Virus record (IMG/VR): IMGVR_UViG_3300043449_001060
Location: 1-52,387 of that record
Direction: 5' to 3' (one strand)
From: a virus
Taxonomy: Duplodnaviria; Caudoviricetes
DNA length: 52,387 bases
The position numbers were made by a program, and so were the translations under genes. The notes under the pieces are model-generated. The model was not told the origin of the DNA. It did no database searches and saw nothing but the letters and a program-made list of their open reading frames with translations. Positions 2,390-29,723 of the stretch are shown piece by piece; position 1 is the first letter of the stretch, and every line of letters begins with the position of its first letter.

Positions 2390-5300
2390 TTAAATTCCAA
2401 TTCTACTTGCACTATTTCTTAAATTCTTAATTGCAGTCTCAGGATCTCCTGTTGAACCAGTAAATCCAAATGCTTTCATTAAGTGATCCCAGAACTTATA
2501 GTCTCCTTTTTCTTCCCAAGAATATGGACCCGCATCTCTTTGGAACTTAGCAGCTTCATTAAATGTAGCCATGTTAAGTAAATCTCCAAATAACTGCATA
2601 TAAAGTAAGAATGTATTACCAAATGCTGTACTAGTAGAAGTTAACATTTTACCATAATCATCCATACCAAAGTTAATACCACCAACTTTAGGTAGAGGAA
2701 TGAATGCAGTAGTTTCACCTTGTACACCCATTAGTAAGTTTAACATGTGATTTTGAAGGAAGCCATATGTTTGATAACCATCAGTTCCAAATGCTTCAGA
2801 ACGTCCAGCAATTTTTTGCCATTTTTCTTCATCATCATCATCATAACCAAAGAGGAGTGATGCCATCAATGCAAATGCCGTAATAAATAATCCATCTGCA
2901 GCAAGTTTTCTGAAAGCAATCTTTTCTTCTGTACTTAAATACTTATAGCTTTTACCACGACTTTTAAGCATCTCAACCATTGCACTAAATCCAGTTAAGT
3001 AAAAACCTTTTCTAGTTTTACCAAGAGCCCAGTCATATCTTGCATTAAATTTAGGAAGCATTTTACCTTCAGTCCATACAAGCTCAGCACCAAATCTGTT
3101 AGTAAACATTGGCGTAAACCATTTTCTCATAAACATGTATAGTCTATACAGTGCAAACTTATTTCCTTCAGGTTGACCAAATTTATCATATGTACCAAAG
3201 AGTAATCTTGAGGTACCTTGAACTTGATTTCTAAATAAATCAAATGCTTCTGACTTAGCAATAACTACTTCATCACCATCAGCTAATTCTAATACACTGT
3301 TGATTTTATTCTTAGCTTTAAGTTCTTCAACAGTAATACCATATTGTTTAGCAATATCATCTAAAGATTCTCCTTTAGTATATTTATGATAGACATGTGT
3401 ATTATTCCACTTTGGATGAATGCCGCTTTTAAGTTTGATAATACCATCAGCATCTTGTTCCCAAGCATCTTTATATCTTATTGTTTGAGTACTACCATCT
3501 GGCATTTTTCTTTCAAGTTTTTGAGCATTTAAGAATGAACCAAATAATGATAGACTTACTTCCATCTCACCAAACTTGCGGTGCATATACATCCATTCAC
3601 CATCAATGAGATCTTTGTAAAGACTTCTACTAATTGATCTCCCAGCATTATCAGTACTTCTAAACACAGGGTCAAAAATTTCTACCATCTGTACTGTTAA
3701 ATCAGGTGGCCCAACTGCATAGATTCCTTTTCTTGAAGACCAACTTGTCATAGTTTTAAATGCCCAAGCGCGTCCATTTGCAATATCTTTTAAGTTTACA
3801 AATTCAGCTCCGGCACCTTCAATAATTAACTGCACCATTGCACCATACTTGTTTTTTAAATCTGATGGAATGTTAACTGCCAATGATGATACAGCTGATA
3901 GTCTCTGCATACCATTTAGTAGCTTAGTAATTCTTGGATATTTCTCTGAGGTATCGGAGTTATGGATACCGTAGAACTCTCTTTCAAATAAAGACTTAAC
4001 CTGGCCAAGCATTTGATTAGTTGAATCTTTTTTAGTCACATTCTTTAACACACCATAAGCATTATATAAGTCCTTACGGTACTTATTCATTTCTTTTGGC
4101 TGCGCTTCTGGACTAGAAAGTGAATCAATTAATGACTCTACTAGTGGTAAGTTCTGAAGTAATACATCATGTGTTTCAAGTGATAATGCATAACGCATTA
4201 ATCCTCTAAATACATCTGGAGAAATTTTATCTGCATCAAGATTGTATATACCTGTTACAGGGATATAACTTATTTGCTCTCCATTTAAATCAGTATTTAC
4301 TAAGTTGTTTTCAGGATTGTAGTTAAAACCATTCTCAAAATCTACTTTTGATTTACCCCACATCTGATCCCACATCTCACTAACATTAGACTTAATCTGG
4401 CTATATCTTTCACCATATTGCCCAGCTTGAAATGCTTCTACTACATTGTCAATTGCATATCTAGGCATATCTAAGTATAGCTTAGCCATACTTGATTTAC
4501 CTTCTTGGTTAGATAAGTGATATTCTTTAATAAGTTCAAGTAATTCAAAGGCTGAACTTTTAGATTGTTTTAGAGATTGATATTTCTTATTGATATACTT
4601 ATCAGTTTTAGCACCATTCTTAGTACCGTCATACTGTTTTGGTAAGAAGTTTCCTTTATTGTCAATTACTTTACCAATGTATTTCTTTTTCTCCTCAGCA
4701 GTTAATCCAAAAGGAATAGTTCTGTATTTATCTTTTACTGTATAGATGGAGTGTCTAGAGTTAGGAACCCCAAGTATAGATATTGTCTCTCCAGTAGATT
4801 CATCTATGATATCTGTAGTTTTAATCATAGAAGGGTCTTTTGGAATAGTTACAGAGTTAGCCATAGTTCTTTCAAACTTGTCTACATATCTTTTATCTTT
4901 TGTACTCCAAACTTTTCTAGTTACGTGGTTTAATAAAAACCAGTCATAGAAGTTTTTATCTTGCTCAAGAATATCAAAGAACTCATCTGAGTTAATATAC
5001 TCATTGACTTTGTCTTCAGCAATAGCTCCTACATTATACTTAGATAAGTTGTAGTTAAGTTCATCTAAGTAATATTCAGTTGGAACTCTCAAAGATAGAT
5101 CACCTAGTTCTGAGAAGATTCCTTCTAGTTCAGCTATCTCTTCAATTGTAAGACCCTTACCTGATTGTTTACCAACTAAAAAGACATATCTTTTCTCTTC
5201 ATCTTTAGTAAGTTTACGAATCTTTAATGCTTGAGCATAACCCCTAAGTTCATCCAGCTCATCTCTACTTAATCCACTAGAATTATCAAAGTTGAATTTA

Positions 5301-8323: not shown

Positions 8324-8327
8324 TTTA

Positions 8328-11300
8328 TTATATTTTACACGTAAATGGATCTTCTTCTAGACCGAGTCTATCTAGAATTTCCTTATCACTTATACCTTGT
8401 CTTTTTCCTACTAAATCTTGTACTTCTTCATACATTGTAGATCCAGGATTCAAGAAACCAAATTCATCATAAAGTCTCTTAGATAAATATACAAATAATT
8501 CTTGAGGCATTTTAGTTGAATCCCCAAATCCTTCGGATGGAAATGCTACTTGGAAACCTTCTTTTAAAAGATCTTTAATCTCTTGGATACCATTTTCATA
8601 GGCATCTTTGATGATTTGATAGTTTTGAGGTTCTAAAGCTGATAGATTATCAAATAAACTATTGAGACCAACAGGGAATCCAATTGTCATGTCTCCCGCA
8701 ATGTTTTTAATAACAGCTCTTCCTACACCCGGTGCTTTACCTTGTAGCATAGCTACGGATGCAGGGTAGATAAATGTTATATCTCTATTGCTTGCTACCG
8801 CTCTATTGTAATCTGTTGGCGTAAATCCTTTTTCATTAAGAATAAATATATCAGGAGTTCTTGACTCAGTTAAGTATTCTCTATCTAGAATAGTTTCTTC
8901 ACCATCAATTTTTGTTTCTTCAATGTTTGCTAATGTATCAAGATCAATATTGAATAAGTAGTTTTTATACCTACCTCTATCAGTTCTTGTTCTTGAGTTC
9001 TCTCTTATAAATCTATTGTAATATGCATCTAAGAAAATGTTAGCAAGTTCCGGATCTTCAAGAGCTTTAATTAATTTCTTGGACTCATTATCTACTAGAT
9101 ACATGAACTGATTATACTCTACTATACTTGTAAAGTTAAATTTAGTTCTGTTGATACCAGTTTGCATAAATGCATATAGAGGTAATCTAGAGAAGAAGTC
9201 ACTTATCATTTGATTGTCAGCAACATCATCTACTTTCTTAATTGATGGATCTGCAAGATCTCTTAAGTTTTTATAGTATAGATTTGAAGTATCATTTGTA
9301 AAGTCCTTTTCTGCTACGTACAAGTTAAACATTGTTCTAGCTGAGTTAGGATCATTCTTCAATTTATTAAGAACAGAGAAGTTTTTCTTAAGCTCAGTTC
9401 CATATTTATTCATCATTTGTGTGTACTGTGTAGCATATGCATACACAGGATCCTTAAACATATGGAATGGGTTTAATGTATTTTCTAAAGCTTTAATTGC
9501 AAGTATTTTTTCATATGTCATGTTTGCAAGCTTAGAAGCAGGTACTCCAGGATTAGATTCTTTAACTAATTTGAGTTCTGCTTTGTAGTTAGCCATCTTT
9601 TTAACATCAGCTTTTGAATAAACTGATCTTAGATATTCTCTTTCTGCTACAAATTTTACATACTCACCTTCATTAGTAAGACCATCAAAGTGGAAGTGTC
9701 CATAAGTTAGTGGATATAAACCACGTTTCTCATAGCTGTCGGACTCTTCAGAACCTTTTATATACACTTTTCTTTGGAAGTCATCCTTCAATGCTTTTTC
9801 ATCAATATAAAGTGTTTTATTACCAGCTTTATCTTCTTTGACAAATGCACCAAATTTTAATTCATCAACCAAAGAAACAGGAACTGTAGTTTTTAATGCA
9901 TAAGATTTATATGATTTACCTAGCGCATATCTTCTAGCTGCTGTCTGGAACAAGAAACTTACCAAGTCATTTCTAAATGTATTAACAAATACATCTGATT
10001 TGTTCTCTCCAAATGTAGCCTCACTATCTTGTCTAATAGTTCTATTTTTAGCAATCAAATAACTTGAGATAGCTTTATTATAGCGCAGTGGAAAGATAAC
10101 CTCATTGATTGCTAATGCAAGTGGATTATTAAAGAATGAAGAAATTACTGTATCACTCATCATTCTTTCTGTAAGACCTTCCTCAAGTTTAGTTTCTGTC
10201 AATAGTGACTCAAGATTTGCTTGAGATTGTTCTGCTTCACTACCAGTTGATCTTGTTGACGTATCTGGATTAGCTGCAATTTTTAATTGTGTTAGACCAG
10301 TAATTTGTTGTTCAATCTGAAGGTAATGTAAGAACATTGCTAATGATAATTCAGATGATGCTACCTCAGGATTTTTCTTAAAATCTTTGATAAGCTTATA
10401 CATTTCTCTTTCTGTAAAGTTCTTAGCTCTTCTTTTCTCAAAAACTTGATCTGCTAACTTTAAACCTTCTTCATATCTTGTTACATTTTTTGAAAGACTG
10501 GCTACTAAAGTTGGTTCAAAATATTTTGCAAGAGTTTCTGTTGCAGCTTGATATTTTACAAAGTTTCTTGAATCTGGTTCTTTACCTAATACATCAGCAA
10601 ATGTTGACTTACCTAGACGTTGTTCTTTTACATATTCTCTTACAAGAGGTTGAGATACAAAGTATACTGCTTCTTTAACAGGTACACCAGCTTTAACTAG
10701 ATATAAAAGAATAGGAGCTACTTCATAATTACCCTGAATGAAGAATACCCATGCATCTTTTTCCACATCCACCCAGCCGTTCATCATCTGAGAGATAATA
10801 TCTGCAATCTTATTTACACCATCTACATCATATCTACTTGCAATTGATATTCTCTCTTCTCCATTTTTATTTACTGTATTATGTCTTAACCATAGTACAG
10901 ATTCTCTTGGATCAGATTCATTACCATGATAGAATTTAGAAGGCATAGCAACTCCACCCTCTGTTTCAATTGAGTTGATCAGAGTATGGAATGTGTTTTC
11001 TACTGCACCTAAACCAAGCGTTCTCTTACCTACAACATTTGATTCATGTTTGTAAATATTATATAAAGTTTCAAGAACTCTTGTAGGGCTAATAACAGTT
11101 TTATTTTTACCATCACCTGAAAGATTGGATTGCTCTGATGATTTATTTACAAATGGATCATAGTCCATTACGTATTTAGATAAGTCATCTGCTAAGTCTT
11201 TTAATAAGAAAGTACCATTAGGGGTAATTAATGATGTATAGTTTTGTGGTAATTCAAGAATACCTCTGATACTATCTATTAAAGAGTTTTGCAATACAGT

Positions 11301-14300
11301 TTCTTGCATTTCTAATGCAAATGCTTTATCCTCTTGTGATACTTCTGGATTTTGTATGTATTCTTTAAGTTGATCTACATTGTCAAACATTCTAGTTGGT
11401 AATGCACCATCTTCATTTATGTTTGCCATGTACAATGTCAACTTATCAATATCAAAGTCAGCTCCTGATTTAGCAACAATCTCTGTTGGAGGCACAATAA
11501 TATTTCCTGCTTGTGGTGGAAGGAAGTGATATACCTCCATAAATTCCATAGAGTTAAGACCCTGTACAGGAATACGTACACCTACAATAGTAATTGCTTT
11601 TCTATTAGCACCATCATTCTCATCTAACCACTCATCATCTTTGATAGCTTCATTTAATCTATCAATATCTCCAATTGGATTACCATCTGGATGTTTGAGA
11701 TTTAAAAGGTTTGAATAGTCCCCTTGCAAAGCAATCATAACTTTCATTGCAGCAGTTAAACCATCAGCTTTTTTATGATATGTTGGGAGGAAGTTAGACC
11801 CTACATATTTTTTAATATCTTCGTCTGTACCTAGTTTTAATTTACCTTCTGGTCTTTTAAATGCACCAGTATAAAATGCTGCAGATACTTGTACTAAAGG
11901 TTCACCATTTACTTTTTGTTTAATAAGTCTTTTATTAATAACAGACATTATTAATTTTTCAATCTTGGCTGCTTCTGGATGAAGAGATACATCATATCTT
12001 AATGTACCATCATCTAATACATCAATAAAGTCAATTAAGTGGTCTCCTACTACATCATCAATTTCAAGACTTGTTCTAACTAATTCTGCAAGTTTTTCAA
12101 TACTGTCTTGATTTTTAGGATAGTATTTACCATCAATTTCTTCATAACCAATCTCTTCAAGTAATCCTATTTTAAGAGTATCAGTATATTCTGCTACATC
12201 ATTAAGATATTTTCTTACTCTTGGGTTAGTAAGTTGATCTTCTTCAGTTGTATCAATTACACCTTTTTCATAAAGTCCTTCCAAGATTAACTTTCTCATC
12301 TGAGTTGAGAAGAGAGATCCACCTTTGTATTTAGAGTTTACCTCTGTTTGATTTTTAAGATACTCAGCAAATACAATGTTTGGAGTAAATGTAACATCAT
12401 TATTAAAGTTACCATCACTATCAATTACTACATCACCTGACCCAATGTGTCCAACTTTTGATCCGGTTTCAAATGTTACATAATCAATTTGCTGACTCAT
12501 CATTTTATCATGAAGCTTTTCATAATAAGAGTTATTAGCAGTTGTATTTGGAATCAATGGAGCCAATGAGAACTTATGGAATGAAGTAATAGGTAAACCT
12601 TCACTCTTAATATTACCAAAGTACTGTAATTTGTATGGTGGGAAGAATTGAATTACATCTTCAACACTAATCTGTTCACCAGCAACAATCTTTTTATAAA
12701 GCAATTCTTGTTGATCAGACCAGTTTCCTTCAAGAGTCTTAAGCATTCGGTATGCTTCAAATGTAATATGTCCTTGACCATCACCCTCTTTCATACCAAG
12801 GTATTCTGCTAATGCAGTTTCTGCAGCTTGTTTAGCTAGTACAGGATCCTTGATTCTTTTATTCATTGACTTAGTTAATTCATCTAAGTACTCTTTATAG
12901 TAAACAGACTCTTTAACTTTCTTTTCTTTTATAATAGCAGTAGCAAGAGTTCCATCATATGGTCTTACTTTGTAACCATTCTTTTTAGCATAAAGTCTAG
13001 GGAATAAACTAGAATTGATAAAAGATTGTGCTTGTAAGTCAACTCTAAATCCTAATCCACCTGAACCTAAACCAGCATTTCTTTTGTGGAATTCTTCTTT
13101 ATCATGATTATACTGAGCAAGATCACCATATGCTAGGATTAGAGTTTCAAACTTATGAATCCAAGAGTTATAAGTATAGGCTTTCATAAGAGTTTCATCA
13201 ATCATATCTCTTGATAAACCTGATTGAGCACCCTTTTGATATAATGCTTGGTCAACAAATCTAGAAGATTGTAATCTTCCAAGATTGGCTGCTACTTCTT
13301 TTTCAAAGTAATTAAGTACATCTCTCTTAACACGTTGTCTTAATTCAAGATTGTTTTCTAATTCTTCAACTAAGTTTCCTTTAATTTTGTATAGTTCTTC
13401 TTTTACAGGCTCTGTTAATACATCATCAAATGCTGTAAATACTTCTGCTGCTGCAACTGTAGTTCCATCTTTCTTTTGTACCGGTCTATTGTATCCAGTA
13501 TAAGTTGAGTATAACTCACGATTACCTTTATATCTATTTATTCTTTCTAACTCTCCAGCCATATATCCTACTAGAATATTAAAGCCTTCAGTTTCTCCAA
13601 GACCGGCATTTTTTGGTTTAAATAGATCAATGTCAATATAGAGATGCTTATCTTTTTTACCTGGATAAGTATCAATGTCATCTGTTGATAATGACATTGC
13701 AGTATTCTTAGATGCATGACGCATGAATTCTTCAATACCACTAAGTAACATAGTGTGTACTTCTTGTAAGAATTTACTTGTTGCATCAAGAGATGCTGTT
13801 GAACTTCCTACAGAATCATTACCATTCTTAACAATAAGTTGAGTACCTCCTACATTATTTAATGTAAGTTTAGCCGGTACTTGTTCAGTACCTTTTCTAA
13901 TCATTCTTTTATCCCCATAGTTTTCAGCTAATGGGTCGTCTAAATGAAAGATTGAATTAAGAAGAACGGACCACTTACTATGTGGGTTATTTTCTTCCGC
14001 TAACCAACGCATATGTTTGTACTTACCATTTGGATCAGCTGCATCACGGGTTAGTTCTTGCCAAGTGCTTGCATGATTTATAGATGTTACAACTCTTGTA
14101 ATTGTGTTATCTACAACTTGTTCCCAGACTCTATTTCCTTCTGGAGATAATACACTAAAATTAGAATAACCGTCAGAGAACTGTGCTTGAAGTTCTGCTA
14201 ATATCTTTATAGAAGATGCAATATCTGTAGATTGTTCTCCTGGTTGTTTTAATACATCAGGTAATCCTTTAATTAATCCAGCTAATGGGTCATGTTTAAA

Positions 14301-17300: not shown

Positions 17301-18899
17301 ACCATCTTTTAATGTAATGGCATTTAATAAGTGTTGTTTGATCTGTTCTTTAGCTGTTGGTGAATCAAGTAAAACAGGTACATCATTAATACTTACTGTT
17401 AATGTTGTGACACCATTTATTTCAGGAGTTAAGATTTCAATATTGTTTTTAATCTTACCCGTATTACTATCAATTACATTATCCCCTAAGAAGATCTCTG
17501 CATATCTACGTTTTGCAATTGGGGATAATTCTTCACCTCTATAGATTGCTTTTGTTGTAAGGATAGTAGCAACTTTATCTGCTACAAGTTCATTAACATC
17601 TCCTTTTTGTAAATATACCGGATGTTTAACTGAAATACCAGGAAGATCTTGTGCAATTTGCACTTGAATATATCCTGATTTAGGACCACCTATAATAGGT
17701 TGGCTGATTTGATCTAGTGATAAACCTGTTTCAGAAATTGGAATGTATTGATTCTTAAAGTTACCAAAGCTACCACCGGTAATTCTAAGCACAACTGTTT
17801 CCTCTGGATTTTCTTTTATGTAAGTCTGAAGTCTGTAAAGATCATTCATACTTTTCTTTTGCTTAGCTTTTTCTTGTTTAAGCAATTTTTTCTTTTCTTC
17901 CTGCAACATACCTAATGGCATGTTATTAACTTGCTTATATTGATTGTTTTTTCTTTCAACAATTTCTTCAGGTGAAACAAGAGTGTATGCAAAGCCAGAT
18001 CTGTTTACTAACATGAGCTTATTGTCTTTCATGACAACATCTCTCATGTATTGATAGACTAATCTTCCTTTTTCTGGATCTGATGTAATATCACCATTCT
18101 CTGTAAAGTATATAAAGTTTCCTTCAGTGTCTGTAATTACGTTAAGGATGCCATTGTAATCAGGATTCTTTTCTAAAAACCTTTGCTCATCTCCTGTTAA
18201 AAGAGAAGTACCATCTTCTCTAGTTGGAAAGTTTTTAATAAGCACAGGTCTTTGAGCTAATGCTACATCTTGGTAAATAATCTCATCATTTTCTGCAGTT
18301 CTTTTTTCATTTAGCAAAATAATTTGCTTAATGACTTTATAGAACATTTCTTTTTCAGGATCTTGTTTGTCTTGATCTTCATCTGCAACAAATTCTGGAT
18401 TTTCGGTAACTGCAAAATTAAGTGTGTTAGTTAAAGGGTCTTCTACCTTACCCTTCTTTTGCACATTACTGTAGTTTATAGTAGCATCATTAGGATCAAT
18501 AACATCAACATCTTTTTTAGATTGTCTTTTTCTTTTAATTGTGCTTTGATAATCAGCTAAACTTTTTGTTTGACCAGAAATAAACTTTTGAACCATCTCA
18601 ACATCTTCAAAACTAATAGACATTTCAGAGATTGGGTCTTGGCTAATTTTATTTTCAACAAAGTATTGTCTTACATTTTTTCTTGTAGCAATTACTTGCA
18701 ACATGATTTCAGGAGCAGCTTGTGCAACTTCTAATGCAAACTTAGGATCATTTATCTCTGCAATTTCTGCATGAAGATTTTTAATATACTCAGCGGGATT
18801 AAACTTTGTTTTTACATCACCATTGATTCTACCTAATAAAGTTTCATAGATATCACCATAGATTGCTAGAACATCATCTTTGTCAAGTAAACAAGCCAT
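8328..18899 (-). CDS. Virion-packaged DNA-dependent RNA polymerase, crAss-type single-chain two-barrel, multidomain (3523 aa)
   Basis: Catalytic loop 'VGVRIPVQG...KSGADFDIDKL' with DFDID at 11445-11459 (aa 2481-2485). Upstream second-barrel motifs 'EGDGQG', 'YKLQYFG', 'HKFSLAPL', 'GSKVG'. Zincin HEAWH at 15924-15938. Confidence 0.92.
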   Translation of the reverse strand: MACLLDKDDVLAIYGDIYETLLGRINGDVKTKFNPAEYIKNLHAEIAEINDPKFALEVAQAAPEIMLQVIATRKNVRQYFVENKISQDPISEMSISFEDVEMVQKFISGQTKSLADYQSTIKRKRQSKKDVDVIDPNDATINYSNVQKKGKVEDPLTNTLNFAVTENPEFVADEDQDKQDPEKEMFYKVIKQIILLNEKRTAENDEIIYQDVALAQRPVLIKNFPTREDGTSLLTGDEQRFLEKNPDYNGILNVITDTEGNFIYFTENGDITSDPEKGRLVYQYMRDVVMKDNKLMLVNRSGFAYTLVSPEEIVERKNNQYKQVNNMPLGMLQEEKKKLLKQEKAKQKKSMNDLYRLQTYIKENPEETVVLRITGGSFGNFKNQYIPISETGLSLDQISQPIIGGPKSGYIQVQIAQDLPGISVKHPVYLQKGDVNELVADKVATILTTKAIYRGEELSPIAKRRYAEIFLGDNVIDSNTGKIKNNIEILTPEINGVTTLTVSINDVPVLLDSPTAKEQIKQHLLNAITLKDGRVVPANLNYTKEYIGDTFTDYTVEGDRITAKKVDYFEFIKPMMKIEFSKDSAAFFVNSNAYLSYSVPSEIMPVTKTNYDLASVTPVSKRKAITKVENEVDNVPDLVVEPGEVVYNVQKVSPVYVINQNIKNVPVTLNIGTNLEIGQANIAKKKAKQYAPITLSKKSKKQTTFPNIGAIAAQTVTTLNRYKSSSVNLTGNNIVELFKGGYSQKDVDSVVYQILEKIVNSSNLFEPITKIVTNGESGVSEAAIRAAKKLGIGVEVTVPAGWKYTVPWANSKSGTYTISNKDEFLSRFGDAPAKTNAKRKTAKTATRNEKLRAEIAKKKAIAKKTATGKKTTGTKTKATQKAKDKQINTVPQVSLLERLQQRRTIFSSDKLNRIETLERRLGGFFERLFTTKAQRESIISWWETNELSKTIPLEKITEVVNSNAFATWSQHGITLYLADKGTPIDLYHEAWHGFSQLFLTIEEKTKLYDEFRKLPKWETAEYVDIEEAIAEDARSYLRDETVFTGFIGKIFKKVRDFLRAMFGKITRQDMTRPRDIANVKELFDKLYKGEILDLKPSMENIMFTKLNRARTIEGFTIDETDKIVNTMDNLLGLEVQYYNDVNDSSTGAVRVFSDNVNRIKAYESVRQQMINTVEYYLEQYANILEDDPNMIGEQERLKDIIDLLSRAIDQFGDPEEAFNKKQPYSVVGFHMKKSRFKIIQEEILEDPTDLENSRILQDYKGNVINPKNLAAPSTMMIISNIIKVEKDEDGNVNEVLDVFGIPQLEDVDIMWNKLSRILEGSFDYPEMYERIVRYSENYPEFQQILDTLRNPNEFEVNDALQFAIETNFFKDFKKPRVKFIQYNINKNILQRKQYDEEGRKIQDEKASYESVVTTANFNYNAVVTDWKNNFTTASTEINPYVELDGDLNPVLNTEKIIRHFGTDRGMFKHEYAREFLEAMGIYMDRSSSEINAIFEDTLNLSNAFRLPLVFETIKTVHAASKSTDFAKVGAAETFKHDPLAGLIKGLPDVLKQPGEQSTDIASSIKILAELQAQFSDGYSNFSVLSPEGNRVWEQVVDNTITRVVTSINHASTWQELTRDAADPNGKYKHMRWLAEENNPHSKWSVLLNSIFHLDDPLAENYGDKRMIRKGTEQVPAKLTLNNVGGTQLIVKNGNDSVGSSTASLDATSKFLQEVHTMLLSGIEEFMRHASKNTAMSLSTDDIDTYPGKKDKHLYIDIDLFKPKNAGLGETEGFNILVGYMAGELERINRYKGNRELYSTYTGYNRPVQKKDGTTVAAAEVFTAFDDVLTEPVKEELYKIKGNLVEELENNLELRQRVKRDVLNYFEKEVAANLGRLQSSRFVDQALYQKGAQSGLSRDMIDETLMKAYTYNSWIHKFETLILAYGDLAQYNHDKEEFHKRNAGLGSGGLGFRVDLQAQSFINSSLFPRLYAKKNGYKVRPYDGTLATAIIKEKKVKESVYYKEYLDELTKSMNKRIKDPVLAKQAAETALAEYLGMKEGDGQGHITFEAYRMLKTLEGNWSDQQELLYKKIVAGEQISVEDVIQFFPPYKLQYFGNIKSEGLPITSFHKFSLAPLIPNTTANNSYYEKLHDKMMSQQIDYVTFETGSKVGHIGSGDVVIDSDGNFNNDVTFTPNIVFAEYLKNQTEVNSKYKGGSLFSTQMRKLILEGLYEKGVIDTTEEDQLTNPRVRKYLNDVAEYTDTLKIGLLEEIGYEEIDGKYYPKNQDSIEKLAELVRTSLEIDDVVGDHLIDFIDVLDDGTLRYDVSLHPEAAKIEKLIMSVINKRLIKQKVNGEPLVQVSAAFYTGAFKRPEGKLKLGTDEDIKKYVGSNFLPTYHKKADGLTAAMKVMIALQGDYSNLLNLKHPDGNPIGDIDRLNEAIKDDEWLDENDGANRKAITIVGVRIPVQGLNSMEFMEVYHFLPPQAGNIIVPPTEIVAKSGADFDIDKLTLYMANINEDGALPTRMFDNVDQLKEYIQNPEVSQEDKAFALEMQETVLQNSLIDSIRGILELPQNYTSLITPNGTFLLKDLADDLSKYVMDYDPFVNKSSEQSNLSGDGKNKTVISPTRVLETLYNIYKHESNVVGKRTLGLGAVENTFHTLINSIETEGGVAMPSKFYHGNESDPRESVLWLRHNTVNKNGEERISIASRYDVDGVNKIADIISQMMNGWVDVEKDAWVFFIQGNYEVAPILLYLVKAGVPVKEAVYFVSQPLVREYVKEQRLGKSTFADVLGKEPDSRNFVKYQAATETLAKYFEPTLVASLSKNVTRYEEGLKLADQVFEKRRAKNFTEREMYKLIKDFKKNPEVASSELSLAMFLHYLQIEQQITGLTQLKIAANPDTSTRSTGSEAEQSQANLESLLTETKLEEGLTERMMSDTVISSFFNNPLALAINEVIFPLRYNKAISSYLIAKNRTIRQDSEATFGENKSDVFVNTFRNDLVSFLFQTAARRYALGKSYKSYALKTTVPVSLVDELKFGAFVKEDKAGNKTLYIDEKALKDDFQRKVYIKGSEESDSYEKRGLYPLTYGHFHFDGLTNEGEYVKFVAEREYLRSVYSKADVKKMANYKAELKLVKESNPGVPASKLANMTYEKILAIKALENTLNPFHMFKDPVYAYATQYTQMMNKYGTELKKNFSVLNKLKNDPNSARTMFNLYVAEKDFTNDTSNLYYKNLRDLADPSIKKVDDVADNQMISDFFSRLPLYAFMQTGINRTKFNFTSIVEYNQFMYLVDNESKKLIKALEDPELANIFLDAYYNRFIRENSRTRTDRGRYKNYLFNIDLDTLANIEETKIDGEETILDREYLTESRTPDIFILNEKGFTPTDYNRAVASNRDITFIYPASVAMLQGKAPGVGRAVIKNIAGDMTIGFPVGLNSLFDNLSALEPQNYQIIKDAYENGIQEIKDLLKEGFQVAFPSEGFGDSTKMPQELFVYLSKRLYDEFGFLNPGSTMYEEVQDLVGKRQGISDKEILDRLGLEEDPFTCKI

Positions 18900-18902
18900 T
18901 TC

Positions 18903-21900
18903 TTAAATATTACATTTTTTATTTTTCAGTCTATCTCTAAAAGAACCTTTTGTTTCAGCTTCTTCAACAGCTTTAGCTGTATCATTTAATGCTGTTACAT
19001 CTTCTAGTGTATCAGTAATTGTTTCGGTATTCTTTTTAAAATCCTCTACATCCTCTGGAGTAAGATCAACTCCTTGTTGTTCTGTTATTGCTTCTTCAGT
19101 CATTCTAGTAAAGTTTTTTAATTCTTCTTCAAGTACAGCATCTGCTTGTCCCGTTACAACATCTTTAATTGCAATTCCTTTAGGACCTATTTTAGTAATA
19201 TATACAGGTTCTATTCTAGTATTACCAAAGATAGGAGTTTTAGGTAAAAGAGTGTCTCCAACTTTGAGGGCGGCTAAAGACATTTCAACTTGAAGTTCTT
19301 CCATTCTTTGATCAAATACATCCTTAAGTTCTGTAGTATTTATACTTCCAGGATTTTCTTTGAGTTCTTCTATTGCTGCTATATAAGCTGCATTAATTTC
19401 ATCTAAAGATGCATTCTTTATTGCGTCAATAAGCTTGGCTCCTTTTTCAGTAGTAACTCCTTCTGTTGTATCAAGGCCGGATAATATATTTGCTGTAGTA
19501 ATTTGACTTTCAGCAATCTTAGATTTCATTTGCTCTGTTGACGGTTTTCCTCCTTTTGGCTCAGGAACTCCCTCTGTTTGTCCTGGGGTAACCCCTTCAT
19601 CCTTAGATAGACCAGACCTGTCTGATACTTTTGTTTCTCCAAAGATGTCTTTGACTTCTCTTGGTTGCCTTTTACTGATTTCTCCATTTTTAGTTAATTT
19701 GATTAGCTCTAGATCATTTAATAGATCATAGATTGCATTAATTTGATTATCTATATCTGTAGTTAAATTACCTTTAACAGCTTCTCTAGAACCTAGCATT
19801 TCTAATTCAACAAGAACATTGTTTGACCAATTATAAATTGCAGACAATCCTGTTGAACTAACTGCACCAGTACCTTGTTCAATTAAAGTATTAAGAGCTT
19901 CAGGGAAATTCTCAGCTAATATAGCATCAATTTTTGTAGCTATTGCGCTTGAAACAGATAAATTATTAATGATTTTTAAATCATCTTGTTGATCTTTATT
20001 AGTCTTACCTTTATAGAGCTTAGTACTTTCTGGTAAAGAGTTAATTGCAAAAATTAGATCCTCAAGATTACCACCACGCATTGTTCTTTTAGGATTATTT
20101 TCTCTTAAAGATTTGAGTTTAGAATTAACTTTTTCAAGTTCTAATCTATAAGCACCAAGTTCTTGCATTTTAGAATTTTGTTTTACTTTTCCGTAGAACA
20201 ATTCTTTTTCTAATGCTGCACGAGTTTTTAATAATTCATCTTTAACATCTGCGTCTTCATCTGTAAGTTTATCAAGCCTGTTATTAATACCTTGAATTCT
20301 TCTATTAGTGTCTTTTACAACATCATTAGGCAAATAAGATGCATAGTCTTTTCTAGCTTTTTCAATTCTATCCTCAAAGTATTCTTTATCTATTTCTAAT
20401 TGTGCTATCTCAGCATCATTAGCTCTATAAGTTAAAGATGCAATTGCTTTACCTGGGCCTTCTGTTGTCCAGTTAATCTTATAGATTACTCCGTTAATTT
20501 CTGCACTATTTAATCCAACTAATTTTACAGTATATGTTTTACCATTTATAACTATTGTTTCAAACGGTGATTGTTTCTGTTTAATTGGAGATATACCAAC
20601 TTGATTAAAAGTTAAGTTACCATCAAATGCAGGAGCCTGATTATACATTATAGACTCAATACCATCTTTATTTTTAATAGTATATGTACCATCAGAATTT
20701 AACATAAGAGTACCTACAGCACCGCCATATACTACCTGGTTACCTACATTATTTATAAGTCTAGTAGGTGCATCAGGATCTTGTTCAACTAATTGTTTTT
20801 CAGTAGGTGCCGTTGGGATTGGTTTTTTAGGCTCAGCTTTTAGAGGAACAATAGCTTCTACCTCTGGCATGTATTCCAATTCTATTGTTGCATCACCTTT
20901 AGGAACAACATCAGATAACTTAGCATCTAAAAGATTACCCTCATTATCATAGTCTACTTCTAATGCCATAAGACCAATGCTGGTTGGCATTATCCCAGTC
21001 ATATTATAAAATAAGTTTCTATAGATAGATTGCTGTATTCTAAAGTATTGCTTCTTACTTGCCTTTTTAGCTTTTTCTAAATCAATTACATCTATATTCT
21101 TTGCAATATCTTCTTCTGAAACACCTTCTTTAGTAAGTTTCTCTTTTAATGCCTCAAGTTCAATATCTGCATTAAATTTTTTCCAGTTACTAGCAAGAAG
21201 TGCTTTAACATCAATAATCTTAAAGTTACCATTTCCATCAATTGCAATAAGGTCAGTCTCACCAACTAAACCATTCTCAAATAAAGATTTGTCAAAGACC
21301 ATGTCACTAGCTCCTACAATCATGTAGTCACCATCAATAACACCATCTCTAAAAGAAGTGATAACACCAGCAGTTCCAAATAATGCATCAAAAGCTTTTT
21401 GAGACATTTTCTCAGGCTTAGTAATTTGTTTAAAGCCTGTACCCTCTCTTGTTAAAAAGTCTTTGATTAATTCATCAAGCATATTACCAACATCCGCAGC
21501 TTGTTTGAATGCTAATTGATTGACAGTTTTAATTACATTTTCTCTTGAAAAATCTTCTGTTAAAGCTTCTCTTAGTAATCTAAATTTCTCTGCATTAAGG
21601 CCTTTGTTATTCTTATCTTTAAATACACTTTTTCCTGTTGACTTAGCAAAAGCTTCAAATGCTGCCATGAATGCATCTAGCTTATCTTCTTCTTTTATTG
21701 AAGCATCACTCATGATAGAATCAAAAGCACTTAAAATAGGAGAAGGAATAGTTACTAAAGTTTCAACACCCTCTTCATCTTTTATACGTTTTTCTTGATC
21801 TTCAAGAGCATAAAAAGTAAAAGGAGTTTTTCCAGGAGTAAGTTGAAGATCTAGCTCCTCAGCTTTTTTAGTTACTCTATCTGCTGTTTTACCATCTATT

Positions 21901-24900
21901 TTTCTTGATACAAGCTTACCATCTTCATCATAAATCTTTTCAATCTCATCTTGTCTTGCAATAATAAAGTCATTAAAGATTTGAAGAGATCTATCAAATG
22001 CTGAATTTTCTTGTACAATACCTTGAGCTCTTAAAAAATCAATAGCAATCTCTAATTGTTTTAAGTCTTCTGTAAGATTCTCCTTTTGTTTTTTAGTTAA
22101 ACGTTTCATCTCTTTAGTTTTCTCAGAAAAATACTCACCAGCATCTAATATATTTTGGTGGGTATCTCTTAATAAAACAAGTGGAGAAATTGAACTTGCA
22201 ATATTTATTTCATAACCTTTAGGTAGTTTAATAAACTTAAACTTAGGTACCTTAAATTGTTTTGCTTCTTGTTCTTGAAGAATTTTCTCGGCATACTTTT
22301 TAGCATTGTATTCCTTAATGATATCCTCTTGTTGTTCTAGCCAGTTTGCTCTAACTAAATCATACTTATCATCCTCAGGACTAATAGCAATTTCATCAGC
22401 AAATTTTTGATCTAATAGTTGGAATAATTCAGGAGCAAGTTTTTCAATCTCTGCCCATGTTGTATTTGTAGGTACAATTACATTTTTAGGAACAGTACTT
22501 GTACTTACACCTTTCTTTGCAAAGTCATCAGTAAGCTCTTGAATAAATTGAGCATAGCGCGCATCTATTTCTCTAAGGGCTGCTTGATAGTCTTTCCAAG
22601 ATTGGGTATCCTTAATTATTTCAACTGGTTCTGTTTCTGTAACTTCTTCAGTACTAGTAGAGATTCTTTCTATTTGAGCATTTAATAATGCAATAGCGGC
22701 TGCACCAGAGTATGCTGCTTCTTCTCTATTACCAATATCATAAGTTTCTTCAAATCTGGTATAGATAGGAACTGCCTCTGCAGATAGCCTTTCTTTATCA
22801 TTTTGTATTTTAAAGATTTCATTATCAATTAGTTCACGGCTAAACTGTTCTTCAGTTAAGTCATAATTACCAATGATATCTTTAATAGCATCAAGGATTA
22901 CAATTGGATCATCACTATCTAATGAATCAATAGCTTCATTAAGCTGTGCTATTTTTCTTTGTTTTGTTTCATCAGAGATTGGCTTGGTTACTTGTTTACC
23001 TTCTGCCTCTTGTTTCTGAAGTTGTTCTAGAGTTGATCCAGTTTCTTTCTTAATGTCATCTTTAAAATTCTCTTCTGCTTGTTCAATCTCTACTTGTTTT
23101 TTAGCAAGTAAATCTTGAATAGCACTTTCTAATTGACCTTCTACATCAACCGGATCTCCAGCTGGTTTTTCAGCTTGCATTCTTGCAACCATGATAAATG
23201 ATTGTATAACTTGCTCATAAGCTAAACTACCTCTTGGAATTATTCTTTCCTGACCTTTAGAACCTTCAATAAAATAACTTGGAAGATTCTCTGGATTTTC
23301 TACCCAATCTGCAAACTCCTCTAGATCTACATAAATATTTTGATCTGCCAATGATTTTAAAAGATCATTGTTTTCTTTTGCCTTAATAGCTTGATCAATG
23401 ATTTCCTTATAGTAGTTTTCTCTATTAAGGTACATGTTACGCATCCACTCAAAGTTTCTTTCTACATGCTCATAGAAAGAGGCCGGCTGCATTAAAAGAT
23501 TGATATAAGGAATAATGTTTTTGTTATCATGTTCAAGCTTATGTAAGTCAATTAAGTCATTGAACATTGCCTCTATACCACCTTTATATGATCCATCTCC
23601 TGCACGGTCCATACTTATCATAGCACTCTGATAGTTCATTTCTGAACCAGCAATTTTCTTAAGTAAGTTTTCAAATGCAGTTTTATATTCAGCTACTGGG
23701 TCTTGACCATTTGATTTATAGTATTCAATCAATTCATCAAAAGCTTGTGTAACTGATTCTTCATCTTCATTACCTTCTTCTTTATATCTCTTCTTAGCTT
23801 CTTCAAAAAAGTCAAGAGCCTGAAGTTTATTTATTTCTTGTTGCTTTGATTCAAACTCAGATAATGCATCAAGAAGTTCTTGTTTATCTTTTATTTGAGC
23901 TTCAGCACCAGCTGTTTGTAAACTTTTTAAAGACTCAATTTCAGTTGACAGCATGTCAATTGTATTTGAAAGTCTTGTAGTATCTGTAAGAGTTTGAAAA
24001 TTTAAAGACGGTTGTGAAGCAAATAAAGGAGATCTGTTTAATCTATTAACTATACCATTGACTCTTTCAAGGTTATTATCAAATGACTCACTTAAGAATA
24101 CCATATTGAATATACCTCTATCTATAGCTTTATTATAGATAGCAGCCTTGTCATACTCTGGTGTACCTTCTTTAAAGTTTTGTAGTTTTAGTTTTTTAGT
24201 TGCTAAATTGTCCTGAGCAAATTGCCATCTCTTACTGATTATGTCAGCTTTTTTAGTATGCTCATCTAAGATTTTGCGCATCTTAGCACCTTCACCTTCT
24301 TTAAGTTCCAAAGTCTCTTCAAGATCTTTATCACTTAAAGTGCCATACTTAGAGAAGTTGTCCTTAAATACTTTGAATGTACCAGCATTAAGAGATGTGA
24401 GTACATCAGAAACAAAGCTTGCATGTGTTGCATCAAATTTTTCTTTTGTATCTGTATCTTCATCACCGTTAATTTTTGCAATAATGCTTTGATCTCCATA
24501 GTTTCTTGATCTTTCATTAAGATACTCTACAGGATTCTGGTGCATATTATTCATTGCATTTTTAACACTTTCACCAAAGGCTTTGCGTTCTCCTATGTAT
24601 TCTTCATACTTAACGGGGTCCATTGTGTATTTGTTGTACAAAATAGATGCGTATCTAGGTACTGCACCATTGAATGGTCTCATAAGACCACCCATTACAA
24701 AACCTGACATGAATGTTTCAAACCCTTCTCCACTCATCTGATGTCCAAAAGCATTTGTAAGTGTTGACATTGAATAATCAAATGTAGCTTTTGACGGATC
24801 ATAAAATGAATTAACATAGTAATCCTCTGTAGATTTAGCAAGAACATCTTGCATAACCTCTTGAGCACCTTCTATTAAGTTAGTTTTGAAGTAAGCAAGA

Positions 24901-26399
24901 GAAGCTTTACCAAAGTTTGCTGGTTTAATAAAACCTTTAAGAGCATTCTTTAAATTAAAATCTACTATTTCATATGCACCTTCTTTGATAGCTTTTCCGC
25001 CACCACCTTTTGCAGCTTGAAATACTAAATCAAACTCTTTACCAATAGATCTAATTGTTCTTGATTGACCAGCAAAGATGTTACCTTTTACAAGATTAGG
25101 AAAAGCTAACTTGTTGCTATAATATACAAGTAATCCATTCTTATATGTATCCTGGAATCCGGCAACTTTGGCTTGCTTACGCATATCCATTTGCTCTTGA
25201 TCACTTGGTGCTCTACCATTAATCTTCCAGAACTTATCGTAAAGTTTAGAATAAGTATTGTTTTCTACAAAGCCTCCTTCAAGTCTACCTTCAGAAAGAG
25301 CCATGTTCATTCCAATTACATCTCTAAATAAACCTGCTGATGTTTTTACTGTTCTTGCAAGACCGGATAGGTTAGAAGCTTCGGCAAATGCAGTTGTAGT
25401 GTTATTAATTGGATTGATAAAATTAAAAGTACCTTTAGAGGCTTGAGTAAAGAATTGTTTAGCAGCATTATAGTTTTCAAGATTCTTTAAGTTTGTAAGC
25501 ATTTTACCGCCATACTTACCCATATTATACAGGTTCTTAGGAAGACTTGCCAAACCTTTTACTGCACCCGCAGCTCCACCAATTAATCCACCAGCAATAG
25601 TTCCTTCAGGACCAACCAGTGAACCTTCTATAGCACCAATAGCTGCATACTCAGCAGCTGCTTCAAACATAATACCAGCACTATACGCTAAGCTATTAAT
25701 TGTATTATTAAAGAATCCACCAATACCACCTTTGGTTGACATACCAATAGCATTGTATTCTTCATAATCTGTAGCCTCATCTATATCCTGACCAATGTTA
25801 CCTTGAAACAGTTGACCATAACTTTTAGGATTTGCAACTAAACCTAATGTAAACATAGGCCAAGCAGCATGCGTAGCCATTCTTACATAGTCATCTACAA
25901 TAGTAGTATTGGCATTAAAGATTTCTTCATTGTTCAATTCTGGATTAAAGCCAATTCTATCATATGTCTTTTGTCCATAGGCTTTGTATCTTGCTTTATG
26001 TGCACCAGTTGAACTAGCATCATACATAAAGGATTTTGCATACTGATTTGGATCTTCAAGATTCACCATCTGGTGGTTCATCTTTTTAATCAAATTATTA
26101 GCAAAGTCTTGAGACCCATTCTTTACTTTTGATAATTGATTTTTATCAAATGGATTAAATCCTACTGTAGTATCTCTAATAGGATCCTTTTGAATTGTAG
26201 GTGACTGATTTGGATCTCTTGGATTAATTACTTGAACTGGAGTTTTCTCAGGATTAATAGTAAAAAAGTTTGGATCAGGATTATAGAACCCTGTTCCAAA
26301 AGGTAAAAAACTTTGAACGTCTGTAGTACCAGGTCTTGTAAACTCAGTTCTTGCTTCTACATTAGGTCCTTCAATGTTTGGATCTTGATTTTCAGCCAT
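18903..26399 (-). CDS. Giant putative virion cargo protein (2498 aa) with a PD-(D/E)xK nuclease-like domain
   Basis: 'VGETDLIAIDGNGNFKIIDVK...IQQSIYRNL' at ~21010-21270. Gly/Ala-rich hydrophobic stretch near the N-terminus. Long acidic helical regions. Directly upstream of the vRNAP gene. Confidence 0.72.
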   Translation of the reverse strand: MAENQDPNIEGPNVEARTEFTRPGTTDVQSFLPFGTGFYNPDPNFFTINPEKTPVQVINPRDPNQSPTIQKDPIRDTTVGFNPFDKNQLSKVKNGSQDFANNLIKKMNHQMVNLEDPNQYAKSFMYDASSTGAHKARYKAYGQKTYDRIGFNPELNNEEIFNANTTIVDDYVRMATHAAWPMFTLGLVANPKSYGQLFQGNIGQDIDEATDYEEYNAIGMSTKGGIGGFFNNTINSLAYSAGIMFEAAAEYAAIGAIEGSLVGPEGTIAGGLIGGAAGAVKGLASLPKNLYNMGKYGGKMLTNLKNLENYNAAKQFFTQASKGTFNFINPINNTTTAFAEASNLSGLARTVKTSAGLFRDVIGMNMALSEGRLEGGFVENNTYSKLYDKFWKINGRAPSDQEQMDMRKQAKVAGFQDTYKNGLLVYYSNKLAFPNLVKGNIFAGQSRTIRSIGKEFDLVFQAAKGGGGKAIKEGAYEIVDFNLKNALKGFIKPANFGKASLAYFKTNLIEGAQEVMQDVLAKSTEDYYVNSFYDPSKATFDYSMSTLTNAFGHQMSGEGFETFMSGFVMGGLMRPFNGAVPRYASILYNKYTMDPVKYEEYIGERKAFGESVKNAMNNMHQNPVEYLNERSRNYGDQSIIAKINGDEDTDTKEKFDATHASFVSDVLTSLNAGTFKVFKDNFSKYGTLSDKDLEETLELKEGEGAKMRKILDEHTKKADIISKRWQFAQDNLATKKLKLQNFKEGTPEYDKAAIYNKAIDRGIFNMVFLSESFDNNLERVNGIVNRLNRSPLFASQPSLNFQTLTDTTRLSNTIDMLSTEIESLKSLQTAGAEAQIKDKQELLDALSEFESKQQEINKLQALDFFEEAKKRYKEEGNEDEESVTQAFDELIEYYKSNGQDPVAEYKTAFENLLKKIAGSEMNYQSAMISMDRAGDGSYKGGIEAMFNDLIDLHKLEHDNKNIIPYINLLMQPASFYEHVERNFEWMRNMYLNRENYYKEIIDQAIKAKENNDLLKSLADQNIYVDLEEFADWVENPENLPSYFIEGSKGQERIIPRGSLAYEQVIQSFIMVARMQAEKPAGDPVDVEGQLESAIQDLLAKKQVEIEQAEENFKDDIKKETGSTLEQLQKQEAEGKQVTKPISDETKQRKIAQLNEAIDSLDSDDPIVILDAIKDIIGNYDLTEEQFSRELIDNEIFKIQNDKERLSAEAVPIYTRFEETYDIGNREEAAYSGAAAIALLNAQIERISTSTEEVTETEPVEIIKDTQSWKDYQAALREIDARYAQFIQELTDDFAKKGVSTSTVPKNVIVPTNTTWAEIEKLAPELFQLLDQKFADEIAISPEDDKYDLVRANWLEQQEDIIKEYNAKKYAEKILQEQEAKQFKVPKFKFIKLPKGYEINIASSISPLVLLRDTHQNILDAGEYFSEKTKEMKRLTKKQKENLTEDLKQLEIAIDFLRAQGIVQENSAFDRSLQIFNDFIIARQDEIEKIYDEDGKLVSRKIDGKTADRVTKKAEELDLQLTPGKTPFTFYALEDQEKRIKDEEGVETLVTIPSPILSAFDSIMSDASIKEEDKLDAFMAAFEAFAKSTGKSVFKDKNNKGLNAEKFRLLREALTEDFSRENVIKTVNQLAFKQAADVGNMLDELIKDFLTREGTGFKQITKPEKMSQKAFDALFGTAGVITSFRDGVIDGDYMIVGASDMVFDKSLFENGLVGETDLIAIDGNGNFKIIDVKALLASNWKKFNADIELEALKEKLTKEGVSEEDIAKNIDVIDLEKAKKASKKQYFRIQQSIYRNLFYNMTGIMPTSIGLMALEVDYDNEGNLLDAKLSDVVPKGDATIELEYMPEVEAIVPLKAEPKKPIPTAPTEKQLVEQDPDAPTRLINNVGNQVVYGGAVGTLMLNSDGTYTIKNKDGIESIMYNQAPAFDGNLTFNQVGISPIKQKQSPFETIVINGKTYTVKLVGLNSAEINGVIYKINWTTEGPGKAIASLTYRANDAEIAQLEIDKEYFEDRIEKARKDYASYLPNDVVKDTNRRIQGINNRLDKLTDEDADVKDELLKTRAALEKELFYGKVKQNSKMQELGAYRLELEKVNSKLKSLRENNPKRTMRGGNLEDLIFAINSLPESTKLYKGKTNKDQQDDLKIINNLSVSSAIATKIDAILAENFPEALNTLIEQGTGAVSSTGLSAIYNWSNNVLVELEMLGSREAVKGNLTTDIDNQINAIYDLLNDLELIKLTKNGEISKRQPREVKDIFGETKVSDRSGLSKDEGVTPGQTEGVPEPKGGKPSTEQMKSKIAESQITTANILSGLDTTEGVTTEKGAKLIDAIKNASLDEINAAYIAAIEELKENPGSINTTELKDVFDQRMEELQVEMSLAALKVGDTLLPKTPIFGNTRIEPVYITKIGPKGIAIKDVVTGQADAVLEEELKNFTRMTEEAITEQQGVDLTPEDVEDFKKNTETITDTLEDVTALNDTAKAVEEAETKGSFRDRLKNKKCNI

Positions 26400-26402
26400 T
26401 TT

Positions 26403-29400: not shown

Positions 29401-29723
29401 TCTTTCATCAAAGTTTTGTCCTCATAGAAAGGAGTAAAAATCTGAGTTGCTTGAGTAACATTTTGTTCAAGTGAAAGATCAAGTCCTGCAATTCTATTAA
29501 GATTAAAGTCTATCTGCTTTAACAAATCATCTTTCTTTTTGATATTTGATTCTCTTGTTAAATCAGCATAGAAGTATTGGCCATATAAATTATTTAAGGA
29601 TTTCCAGTTTGAATCATACTGACTTTGCTTTGTTTGTAAATAATTATTATAAAAGTTTAAGTCAGGCTGAAAAGGCTGATAATCCGGAATATAATCTGTG
29701 ACACCTTGTAGGTACGTTGCCAT
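26403..29723 (-). CDS. Large putative virion cargo protein (1106 aa), function unknown
   Basis: Long ORF in the cargo cluster with a helical/coiled-coil-like N-terminal half. No Cys and no catalytic motif recognised. Confidence 0.6.
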   Translation of the reverse strand: MATYLQGVTDYIPDYQPFQPDLNFYNNYLQTKQSQYDSNWKSLNNLYGQYFYADLTRESNIKKKDDLLKQIDFNLNRIAGLDLSLEQNVTQATQIFTPFYEDKTLMKDMAYTKNFMSEYSRANGLKASKDEKVRGQYWDTGVKKMLYEREEFKNSTDEESMTFANVTYTPYVNAIEKYMKSAKEMGISADITQSNGRYFIRQKNGDLILQPLTNYFTSQFANDPALQEVYKAQAYVNRKDHVLQNKDKFNGDLVAAERDYLTKQYATIQEYIKLKNEKNTQDADNLEKERDDVKQKLESGNSNEFTPRYLQSLETSLGIAKDNAQYTQGLSEQISDRPSKTPTTSNAAPDLSDIERLRFQVDAGVSSMLAEQDINEAAYNYSRVGMVTDMSADPYGVAAQNHAYALQRQLAAQAHKDQLLIDKDLKEKKNLMIEAGLKNGSYIGMNPVTDDQGNIVDYEPIANPALNNRFTIPGKNKSGGATDKSMSLIQEGKNLTEDFTREYADGMVKQIASTIDSWVKLKRMTREEAAQYFFSDSGLAAVKGKPSSAREAIDQVLLFKPGESWTQTSQRLKDNRAIMTTSQFIANYKKDPANFLTGRGADLLSKTYARVMQFAQATKGDKGVSDSFLEKAPHTDFDKYLVFVRNNELVTQANDKTIQKTLRSTPRVEGMSLELKNKLTNLVLNSDLTMISKEDFVKYGKAYLVNADKYPNITSVIEGKRNLTSADKAAIEALRKKANDKINKPRTEGFIIEKYPSLSERDYYEIERQYIIGKFNLKDNAANEGKADPEAKLKAIYDEMALAYKDVIQNPKEIKSASNLISKNKANAVFNTSESAVGVNLSAIQTTGFKAFLEFTQDASKINFYDTKNNPISFYGPNISGVEQTKELYEDADDMYRNVKIAELLVREYQNGVGKKDFKTFNLSSVQVAVENRNKGAMILYPTLDVLNKLKAGEGKGLLDEETINAIATNGISFVSDRKNFNNWLIKGNELDPLEGMINALGKVEYEDPMGGGNFTIEKDESGAAPYKVYGTMLQMQPDGTKVEVPFVVPPVNFQNNIGLANELARKNLQEMANYNAVVWQQFHAQNYRPGVSKTSLQGRSLPVNQ

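Follow-up and report, generated by a model that had tools for sequence, protein, structure and literature searches.

The 52,387 nt IMG/VR record IMGVR_UViG_3300043449_001060, a fragment of an uncultured crassvirus that is 44 % complete and is analysed here over its full length (the window), encodes three giant proteins, here called A, B and C, of which B is the virion RNA polymerase (vRNAP). Together they contain four Cys in 7,998 residues, and each Cys is the third residue from a terminus that faces another member of the trio in gene order. According to the original prediction for this DNA, the termini that face one another work in pairs and hold the proteins in an ordered chain, and this is supported by the conservation of the Cys and by their co-variation with gene architecture. 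From these comparisons we consider it probable, at roughly two chances in three, that facing termini are linked pairwise, most simply by disulfides, to make A-B-C a head-to-tail pseudo-polyprotein. The proteins and the Cys codons are as follows.

18903..26399, minus strand: protein A, 2498 aa, counterpart of crAss001 gp47 and phi14:2 g067; first in the proposed chain
18912..18914, minus strand: codon (TGT) for Cys2496 of A, facing B; the sole Cys of A, which ends ...KKCNI before the stop codon
18891..18893, minus strand: codon for Cys3 of B, facing A; B starts MAC...
8328..18899, minus strand: protein B, 3523 aa, vRNAP; middle member of the proposed chain
8337..8339, minus strand: codon for Cys3521 of B, facing C; B ends ...FTCKI before the stop codon
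8315..8317, minus strand: codon for Cys3 of C, facing B; the sole Cys of C, which starts MIC...
2390..8323, minus strand: protein C, 1977 aa, counterpart of crAss001 gp49 and phi14:2 g065; last in the proposed chain

Cysteine pattern and its conservation

All four Cys codons are where the original prediction had placed them, the outer ends of the trio are Cys-free (A starts MAENQD... and C ends ...ASRIGI), and no overlooked internal Cys was found in the three translations. B has Cys at residues 3 and 3521 and no others. The frequency of Cys in the trio (4/7,998) is far below background, as in the ejection proteins of the Schitoviridae; Cys content is 0.85–4.5 % in other open reading frames (ORFs) of the window. 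The depletion reaches past the trio, as the upstream ORFs of 1106, 979 and 2113 aa have zero Cys. If four Cys were placed at random, the probability that all would lie no more than 3 residues from the four junction-facing ends is about 5e-12, which argues against chance, as does conservation of the pattern at 26 % identity.

Close relatives at 97–99 %, 79–82 % and 51 % identity keep every junction Cys. In phi14:2 (~24 % identity), the one Cys of g067 (1797 aa) is its last residue, g066 (2180 aa) has Cys at residues 3 and 2179 only, and g065 (1421 aa) has Cys at residue 3 only. In crAss001, the sole Cys of gp47 is residue 2339 of 2341, gp50 has Cys at residues 5, 1334 and 2404 of 2412, and gp49 has Cys at residue 5 only.

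A total of 296 database homologues were examined, namely 57 of A, the best 120 of 603 of B, all of which come from the window's own branch of Crassvirales, and 119 of C. A Cys lies within the last eight residues of all 57 A homologues, none (0/57) has an N-terminal Cys and 56 have no other Cys. Among the best 120 of the 603 B homologues, a C-terminal Cys is found in 120, an N-terminal Cys in 110 and no internal Cys in 108. The 110 start M-x-C, and the other 10 are N-truncated calls that begin at residues 93–2017 of the nearest full-length relative. The real starts are thus not downstream of the M-x-C, and the starts assumed in the original prediction stand. C homologues have a Cys at positions 3–10 in 107 of 119 cases and a C-terminal Cys in one. 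The 12 that lack the N-terminal Cys comprise 11 N-truncated calls and one protein, P0294, without a relative at its N-terminus; P0294 is also the carrier of the single C-terminal Cys in the C family. Taken together, the truncated B and C calls begin 14–2017 residues into the nearest full-length relative. Over the 296 homologues (with B represented by the best 120 of 603), there are 24 internal Cys in 823,677 residues.

The families covered by name are Steigviridae, Intestiviridae and Suoliviridae. Terminal Cys are found in the Steigviridae phi14:2, crAss001 and cr108_1, and in the Intestiviridae in crAss002 and in all 36 IMG/VR loci displayed out of 77 fetched. In the Suoliviridae phage cr52_1, which is probably TAG recoded, the large protein has Cys at -4 and the next protein has Cys at 6 (negative positions are counted from the C-terminus). 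Conservation of the terminal Cys in homologues, as predicted, holds across Crassvirales, including 80 IMG/VR loci at 26–65 % identity described below.

With regard to recoding, there are 37 in-frame TAG codons in gp34 and 26 in gp35 of cr52_1 (L167, 1621–19724). The cargo genes of both cr52_1 and a second Suoliviridae phage, cr273_1 (L168), contain many in-frame TAG and no in-frame TAA or TGA, which is consistent with TAG recoding.

The free ends of the trio are conserved too. Among the homologues P0121–P0296, A mostly starts MAE[DEN]..., and the end of C is often rich in Ser, Gly and Arg, for example ...S-x-R-[IL]-G-x (in the window, these ends are at 26399 and 2390, respectively). These conserved free ends of A and C may be leading-end and trailing-end signals.

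Gene boundaries, fusions and extra links

To retrieve the 80 IMG/VR loci, each with 10 kb flanks, the catalytic regions of four distant phages were aligned and used as the query (alignment A1; first row window:11400-12812:-). ORFs in each locus were labelled A, B or C by transitive BLAST, and junctions were then scored. At 132 of the 135 junctions, a Cys is found within 10 residues on both sides. The three exceptions are L075 (Cys at -21), L078 (Cys at -19) and a frameshift in L043. No Cys was found at the chain-start N-termini (0/17, a count that sets aside five B proteins for which the A gene falls outside the locus) or at the chain-end C-termini (0/42), and the visible genes just upstream of the chain start are Cys-free in 13/13 cases.

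Homology labels identify A+B fusions in L050, L059, L083, L084 and L086 (4065–4902 aa), and the sole Cys in each is C-terminal. Three further proteins, in L066, L070 and L077, resemble A+B fusions by length and context, and have one or two Cys deep in the B part. In the Intestiviridae, B and C are fused. In the 36 of 77 loci for which the ends are shown, A ends with a Cys at -2 (36/36), and the B+C fusion lacks a C-terminal Cys and begins M-x-C, except where the M-x-C lies at residues 17–29 behind a probably spurious upstream ATG.

Across this human-gut crAssphage family (L089–L165), Cys depletion is relaxed in the B+C protein and the A(-2)/B(3–5) pair is kept in each of the 36 loci displayed out of the 77. 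For the crAss002 fusion, alignment is limited to the B core and the C-terminal half of C. The sequence DDPNC at residue 3119 of that fusion was noted in locating the B/C boundary and is probably due to chance. In crAss002 gp33 (L008:11951-12047), M-S-C is found at residues 33–35, and the close relatives in L089 and L115 start MSC, suggesting that the annotated start of gp33 is probably 32 codons too early.

Four loci contain an additional chain member with a Cys near each end: L020 (655 aa, Cys at 3 and -1), L021 (396 aa, Cys at 3 and -2, with C split after ~104 residues), L044 (583 aa, Cys at 4 and -3, absent from the 64 % identical sister L045) and L088 (328 aa, Cys at 3 and -4). In the L020 piece, the last ~130 residues can be aligned to the C-terminal end of B from the sister L026 and from L029, and the remainder has no match in the B of either; the longer B of L026 and L029 has no Cys at the position matching the L020 junction. 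In the L088 link (14536–15522), the first 32 residues are similar to the start of B in the related L078, with 41 % identity across 37 aligned positions, which looks like the duplication of a terminal 'linker' peptide.

It had also been proposed that new terminal Cys might appear where the RNAP gene is split. These four additional members bear this out, whereas two apparent splits of the RNAP core are pseudo-splits without new Cys. The split of B in L043 is a frameshift at ~10729, where homology continues in another frame without a gap, and is either a sequencing error or a pseudogene. In cr108_1 (NC_055878), B is interrupted by a group I intron (RF00028, 80 bits, E 8.8e-21; L166:13352-13670) that falls between GSD and YDID of the catalytic sequence, and the exons are annotated as separate proteins, gp054 and gp053. 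As neither is a true gene boundary, no Cys is expected there.

A quick maximum-likelihood tree built from 90 catalytic regions places the four extra links as separate events (four independent contrasts, p 0.125). The A+B state gives two well-supported independent contrasts (p 0.5), or five on the best tree, and the B+C fusion is one clade. All contrasts are in the predicted direction. Taken singly, the two tests have too little power, and a hand-combined sign test (6/6) gives a two-sided p of ~0.03.

The presence of two Cys per junction, their strict polarity and their gain and loss with junctions indicate that the thiols at a junction act on each other. The alternative is that only their valence matters, with the Cys cross-linking A to A or A to C, forming B rings or networks, or binding other virion proteins, and so anchoring the cargo and not ordering it. 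This would suit the B-like N-terminal peptide on the extra link of L088, and the terminal peptides are otherwise poorly conserved, so that specific docking is not evident; potential partners also exist in crAss001, where gp45 has two Cys and the tail many disulfides (PMC10172136). The polarity is nevertheless strict, with the Cys of A C-terminal in 57/57 and that of C N-terminal in 107/107 full-length proteins. Fusions join A to B or B to C and no other pair, and neither Cys remains at the fused A-B boundaries, a loss that anchoring to a third protein would not predict. We regard this alternative as unlikely.

The Cys could also be a by-product of a nucleotide signal at coupled junctions (TGTAA) or of mis-called starts. 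TGTAA is found 15–16 nt upstream of the ATG at three window junctions (8323–8339, 18899–18914 and 26399–26415), and at the last of these, between the 1106 aa ORF and A, it is out of frame. However, the spacing in L005 is 11 nt and the Cys is still in frame, and junctions upstream of A in the window are equally tight and Cys-free. In crAss001, A keeps its C-terminal Cys even though its gene is encoded on the other strand than those of B and C, and both Cys are kept across B-C gaps of 500–1300 nt in L054, L057 and L062; these two observations rule against a nucleotide or translational-coupling signal. The TGTAA spacing is probably a coincidence given L005 and crAss001, although there may be a weak upstream signal, and, with chance included, we give this group of explanations almost no credence.

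Junction chemistry and the proposed chain

N-terminal Cys are at positions 3–6, never at 2, and C-terminal Cys are mostly 1–5 residues from the end. When 27 C-termini of B and 27 N-termini of C were aligned, Cys was the sole invariant column in each alignment. In B, Cys3521 comes after a conserved C-terminal motif, [DN]P[FL]x(x)C. The AlphaFold2 model of the C-terminal end of B has a small confident domain, with blocks of predicted local distance difference test (pLDDT) >90, followed by a low-confidence tail that carries the Cys (mean pLDDT of 53 over the last 10 residues). The N-terminal domain of C is modelled with confidence, and its first helix begins at residue 4, directly after Cys3. Prediction of a complex between the last 150 aa of B and the first 150 aa of C, using 27-row alignments, gave a median ipSAE of 0.21 against a mark of 0.32, and was not used either way.

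The last 150 residues of B (window 8331–8780, minus strand) form a conserved small alpha/beta domain that includes MPxELFVYLSxRLxEEFGYxNPGS. A Foldseek search of the modelled domain against PDB found no match at E <= 0.001 (best 0.13).

The same chain could be held together by coordination, if facing terminal thiols bound a metal ion (Zn, Fe or Cu). Pairwise coupling of Cys is equally compatible with this, the acidic residues that often precede the C-terminal Cys (E-[DN]-P-F-x-C) could add ligands, and no oxidant would be needed in an anaerobic habitat. Two thiolates alone are a poor site, however, and there is no conserved His or second Cys near either terminus, where Cys is the only invariant position. 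Coordination is in our view an improbable form of the link. Another candidate was one Zn(Cys)4 site that would clasp the four termini together. As the Cys count is two per junction, with A+B fusions keeping two of the four and an extra link giving six, one shared site of this kind is excluded.

Terminal Cys might otherwise serve processing (thiol-dependent cleavage, ligation or lipidation) without a stable link. It has been suggested that the fused forms are cleaved and that orthologues of gp65 have a Zincin-like protease domain (10.1101/2020.03.07.982082). Against this, intein halves (about 100 and 35 aa) cannot fit where the Cys are 1–6 residues from the ends, Pfam finds no intein or protease in A, B or C, and the flanking residues vary. 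A processing role thus seems very unlikely. Protein trans-splicing by a split intein was rejected, given N-terminal Cys at 3–6, C-terminal Cys mostly 1–5 residues from the end, and no Pfam intein domain.

For the disulfide-linked chain, the proposed mechanism is that selection would strip Cys from ~8,000 residues except for one thiol at each junction-facing terminus. The thiol at the C-terminus of A would pair with that at the N-terminus of B, and the C-terminus of B with the N-terminus of C. Inter-protein disulfides formed inside the virion would be the simplest chemistry, and the three polypeptides would become one N-to-C string with S-S bonds in place of peptide bonds. Packaging could then be fixed at 1:1:1, and the string could be threaded sequentially through the tail. 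Once in the host cytoplasm, which is reducing, the links would come apart and the three proteins would be free. The disulfide chemistry and its timing, and the role of the chain in threading, stoichiometry and release, are what we infer from the pattern. Three members appear to be the rule, with two to four seen across lineages, and evolution may be able to insert, split or fuse links freely if each new end brings a Cys.

Several features of the trio are in keeping with such a chain. The crAss001 cargo is expected to be ejected partly unfolded, as the channel forces unfolding, and both the tail and gp57 of crAss001 virions have structural disulfides (Bayfield 2023, PMC10172136). Bayfield et al. 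also collected mass spectrometry data on virions with and without reduction. With no other Cys present, bonds could not scramble, and unfolded proteins would not be trapped by periplasmic oxidases during ejection. With Cys 1–6 residues from the chain end, a junction would be barely thicker than a single chain and could pass a narrow tail channel. Some lineages encode a fused polyprotein outright (Drobysheva et al., 10.1101/2020.03.07.982082), and the chain would mimic what these lineages encode as one gene.

Other points weigh against the disulfide-linked chain. The evidence is comparative throughout. A reducing host cytoplasm and an anaerobic gut speak against ready oxidation of the thiols, and two thiols could bridge a metal instead. 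The B-like N-terminus of the L088 link implies low pairing specificity, so chain order may not be strictly fixed. In Suoliviridae cr273_1, the downstream protein has Cys 3 and the nearest upstream Cys (in gp35) is at -50, which makes this phage a partial exception, and the upstream Cys is further in for some lineages (crAss001 gp50, -9; L078, -19; L075, -21). The absence of other Cys is not universal, as there are 4–23 internal Cys in the Intestiviridae B+C fusions. Finally, phylogenetically independent fusion and fission events are few (six robust).

A search for an Erv1/Alr sulfhydryl oxidase found no match in the 44 % complete record, and none in control genomes either. An annotated thioredoxin-domain gene, cr108_1 gp046 (L166:24629-24898), lies near the cargo module, and phage thiol-redox proteins could bear on the forming or opening of the proposed disulfides.

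More tentatively, and with rather less confidence than even odds, we suggest that Crassvirales in general swap peptide bonds for disulfides at gene boundaries, so that a string of 6,000–9,000 residues would be threaded as one and unzipped by host thiol reductases.

Known systems and neighbouring genes

The Crassvirales cargo trio (crAss001 gp47/gp50/gp49; phi14:2 gp67/gp66/gp65) is homologous to A, B and C, has the same order and lies next to the muzzle gene. The crAss001 and phi14:2 counterparts are virion cargo, and the crassvirus papers (PMC10172136; 10.1101/2020.03.07.982082) describe separate cargo proteins or a cleaved polyprotein, and no disulfide chain. No mention of junction-facing Cys was found in full-text literature searches or in the main text of Bayfield 2023 and the Drobysheva preprint. 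The rule that Cys face the junctions, and its co-variation with gene architecture, appear to be new.

The ejected proteins of N4-like phages are Cys-depleted, and the published reason is passage through the oxidizing periplasm (PMC11445570). In the Schitoviridae (N4 gp50 and DEV gp71/72/73), the giant vRNAP and its companions are, as in the window, almost Cys-free. They differ in having essentially zero Cys, the few found being dismissed as annotation errors, and no terminal pairs are described (PMC11445570). In contrast, the window trio keeps exactly one Cys per junction-facing end. The absence of Cys, explained in N4-like phages by periplasmic oxidation, would here also prevent mis-pairing.

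In diphtheria, botulinum/tetanus and ricin-type toxins, a chain crosses a membrane unfolded, carries one interchain disulfide and is released by cytosolic reduction. There, the disulfide is at internal positions and bridges two parts of one nicked polypeptide. The logic proposed for crassviruses is the same, but would apply to separately encoded giant proteins joined end to end, with the phage tail as the vehicle. Von Willebrand factor and gel-forming mucins make long linear polymers via Cys near the chain ends. In these homopolymers, Cys-rich domains make the head-to-head and tail-to-tail joints, whereas the proposed crassvirus chain would be a head-to-tail hetero-trimer with single Cys in otherwise Cys-free proteins.

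The virion structure of crAss001 raised the question of how almost a megadalton of cargo is packed, ordered and ejected. As the rule of one Cys per junction-facing end and none elsewhere can be read from sequence, the hypothesis is directly testable in the cultured phages phi14:2 and crAss001. If true, it would account for a module that is fused in some lineages and split in others, and would give annotators a simple way to recognize correct starts and stops as well as members of the chain, as for crAss002 gp33. It would also mark which crassvirus proteins are ejected within the chain. A redox-released head-to-tail protein chain would join the known modes of phage protein delivery, and the most abundant human-gut phages would deliver their transcription machinery by redox-triggered release.

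The further features of the window are listed below.

11445..11459, minus strand: catalytic DFDID motif of the vRNAP, with D452, F453, D454 and D456 invariant in alignment A1
3296–3376, minus strand: LysM domain in C, residues 1650–1676 (PF01476, 25.2 bits; Pfam cut-off 20.9)
26403..29723, minus strand: upstream ORF, 1106 aa, Cys-free and outside the chain, so that its junction with A serves as a negative control; no Pfam or PHROG match
32624–35563, minus strand: Cys-free giant ORF, 979 aa, between the muzzle gene and the chain
35600–41941, minus strand: Cys-free giant ORF, 2113 aa; weak Phage_lysozyme match below the Pfam cut-off
41941..47385, minus strand: muzzle protein, 1814 aa, 19 Cys (PF25731 crAss_MUZ, E 1.3e-29)

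The match to PF25731 identifies the gene block as a crassvirus tail/cargo module. By the transitive BLAST labels, the vRNAP gene is in the block downstream of the muzzle gene, between homologues of gp47 and gp49/gp65. The RNAP label originally given to the 3523 aa protein is well founded, as B matches PDB 6VR4 chain A (phmmer, E 5.2e-23), contains the DFDID motif and was matched by tblastn to phi14:2 g066 and many other Crassvirales 'cr' phages. The LysM label of the 1977 aa protein is likewise upheld by a PF01476 match above the Pfam cut-off. The 2498 aa protein had been called a nuclease protein, and this label is unsupported, A having no family match in Pfam or PHROG searches. LysM, muzzle and the sub-threshold lysozyme were the only matches of the giant proteins in these searches, and megablast of window 7000–20500 against the phage collection gave no match.

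From their position, the 979 aa and 2113 aa ORFs are probably further ejected or cargo proteins. Within this otherwise Cys-free block of giant genes, a 943 aa ORF (29783–32614) has eight Cys, all clustered at residues 625–665 (window 30620–30742, minus strand) as CxC, CxC, CxC and CxxC. It has no Pfam or PHROG match, and the arrangement of the Cys looks like a metal-binding knuckle.

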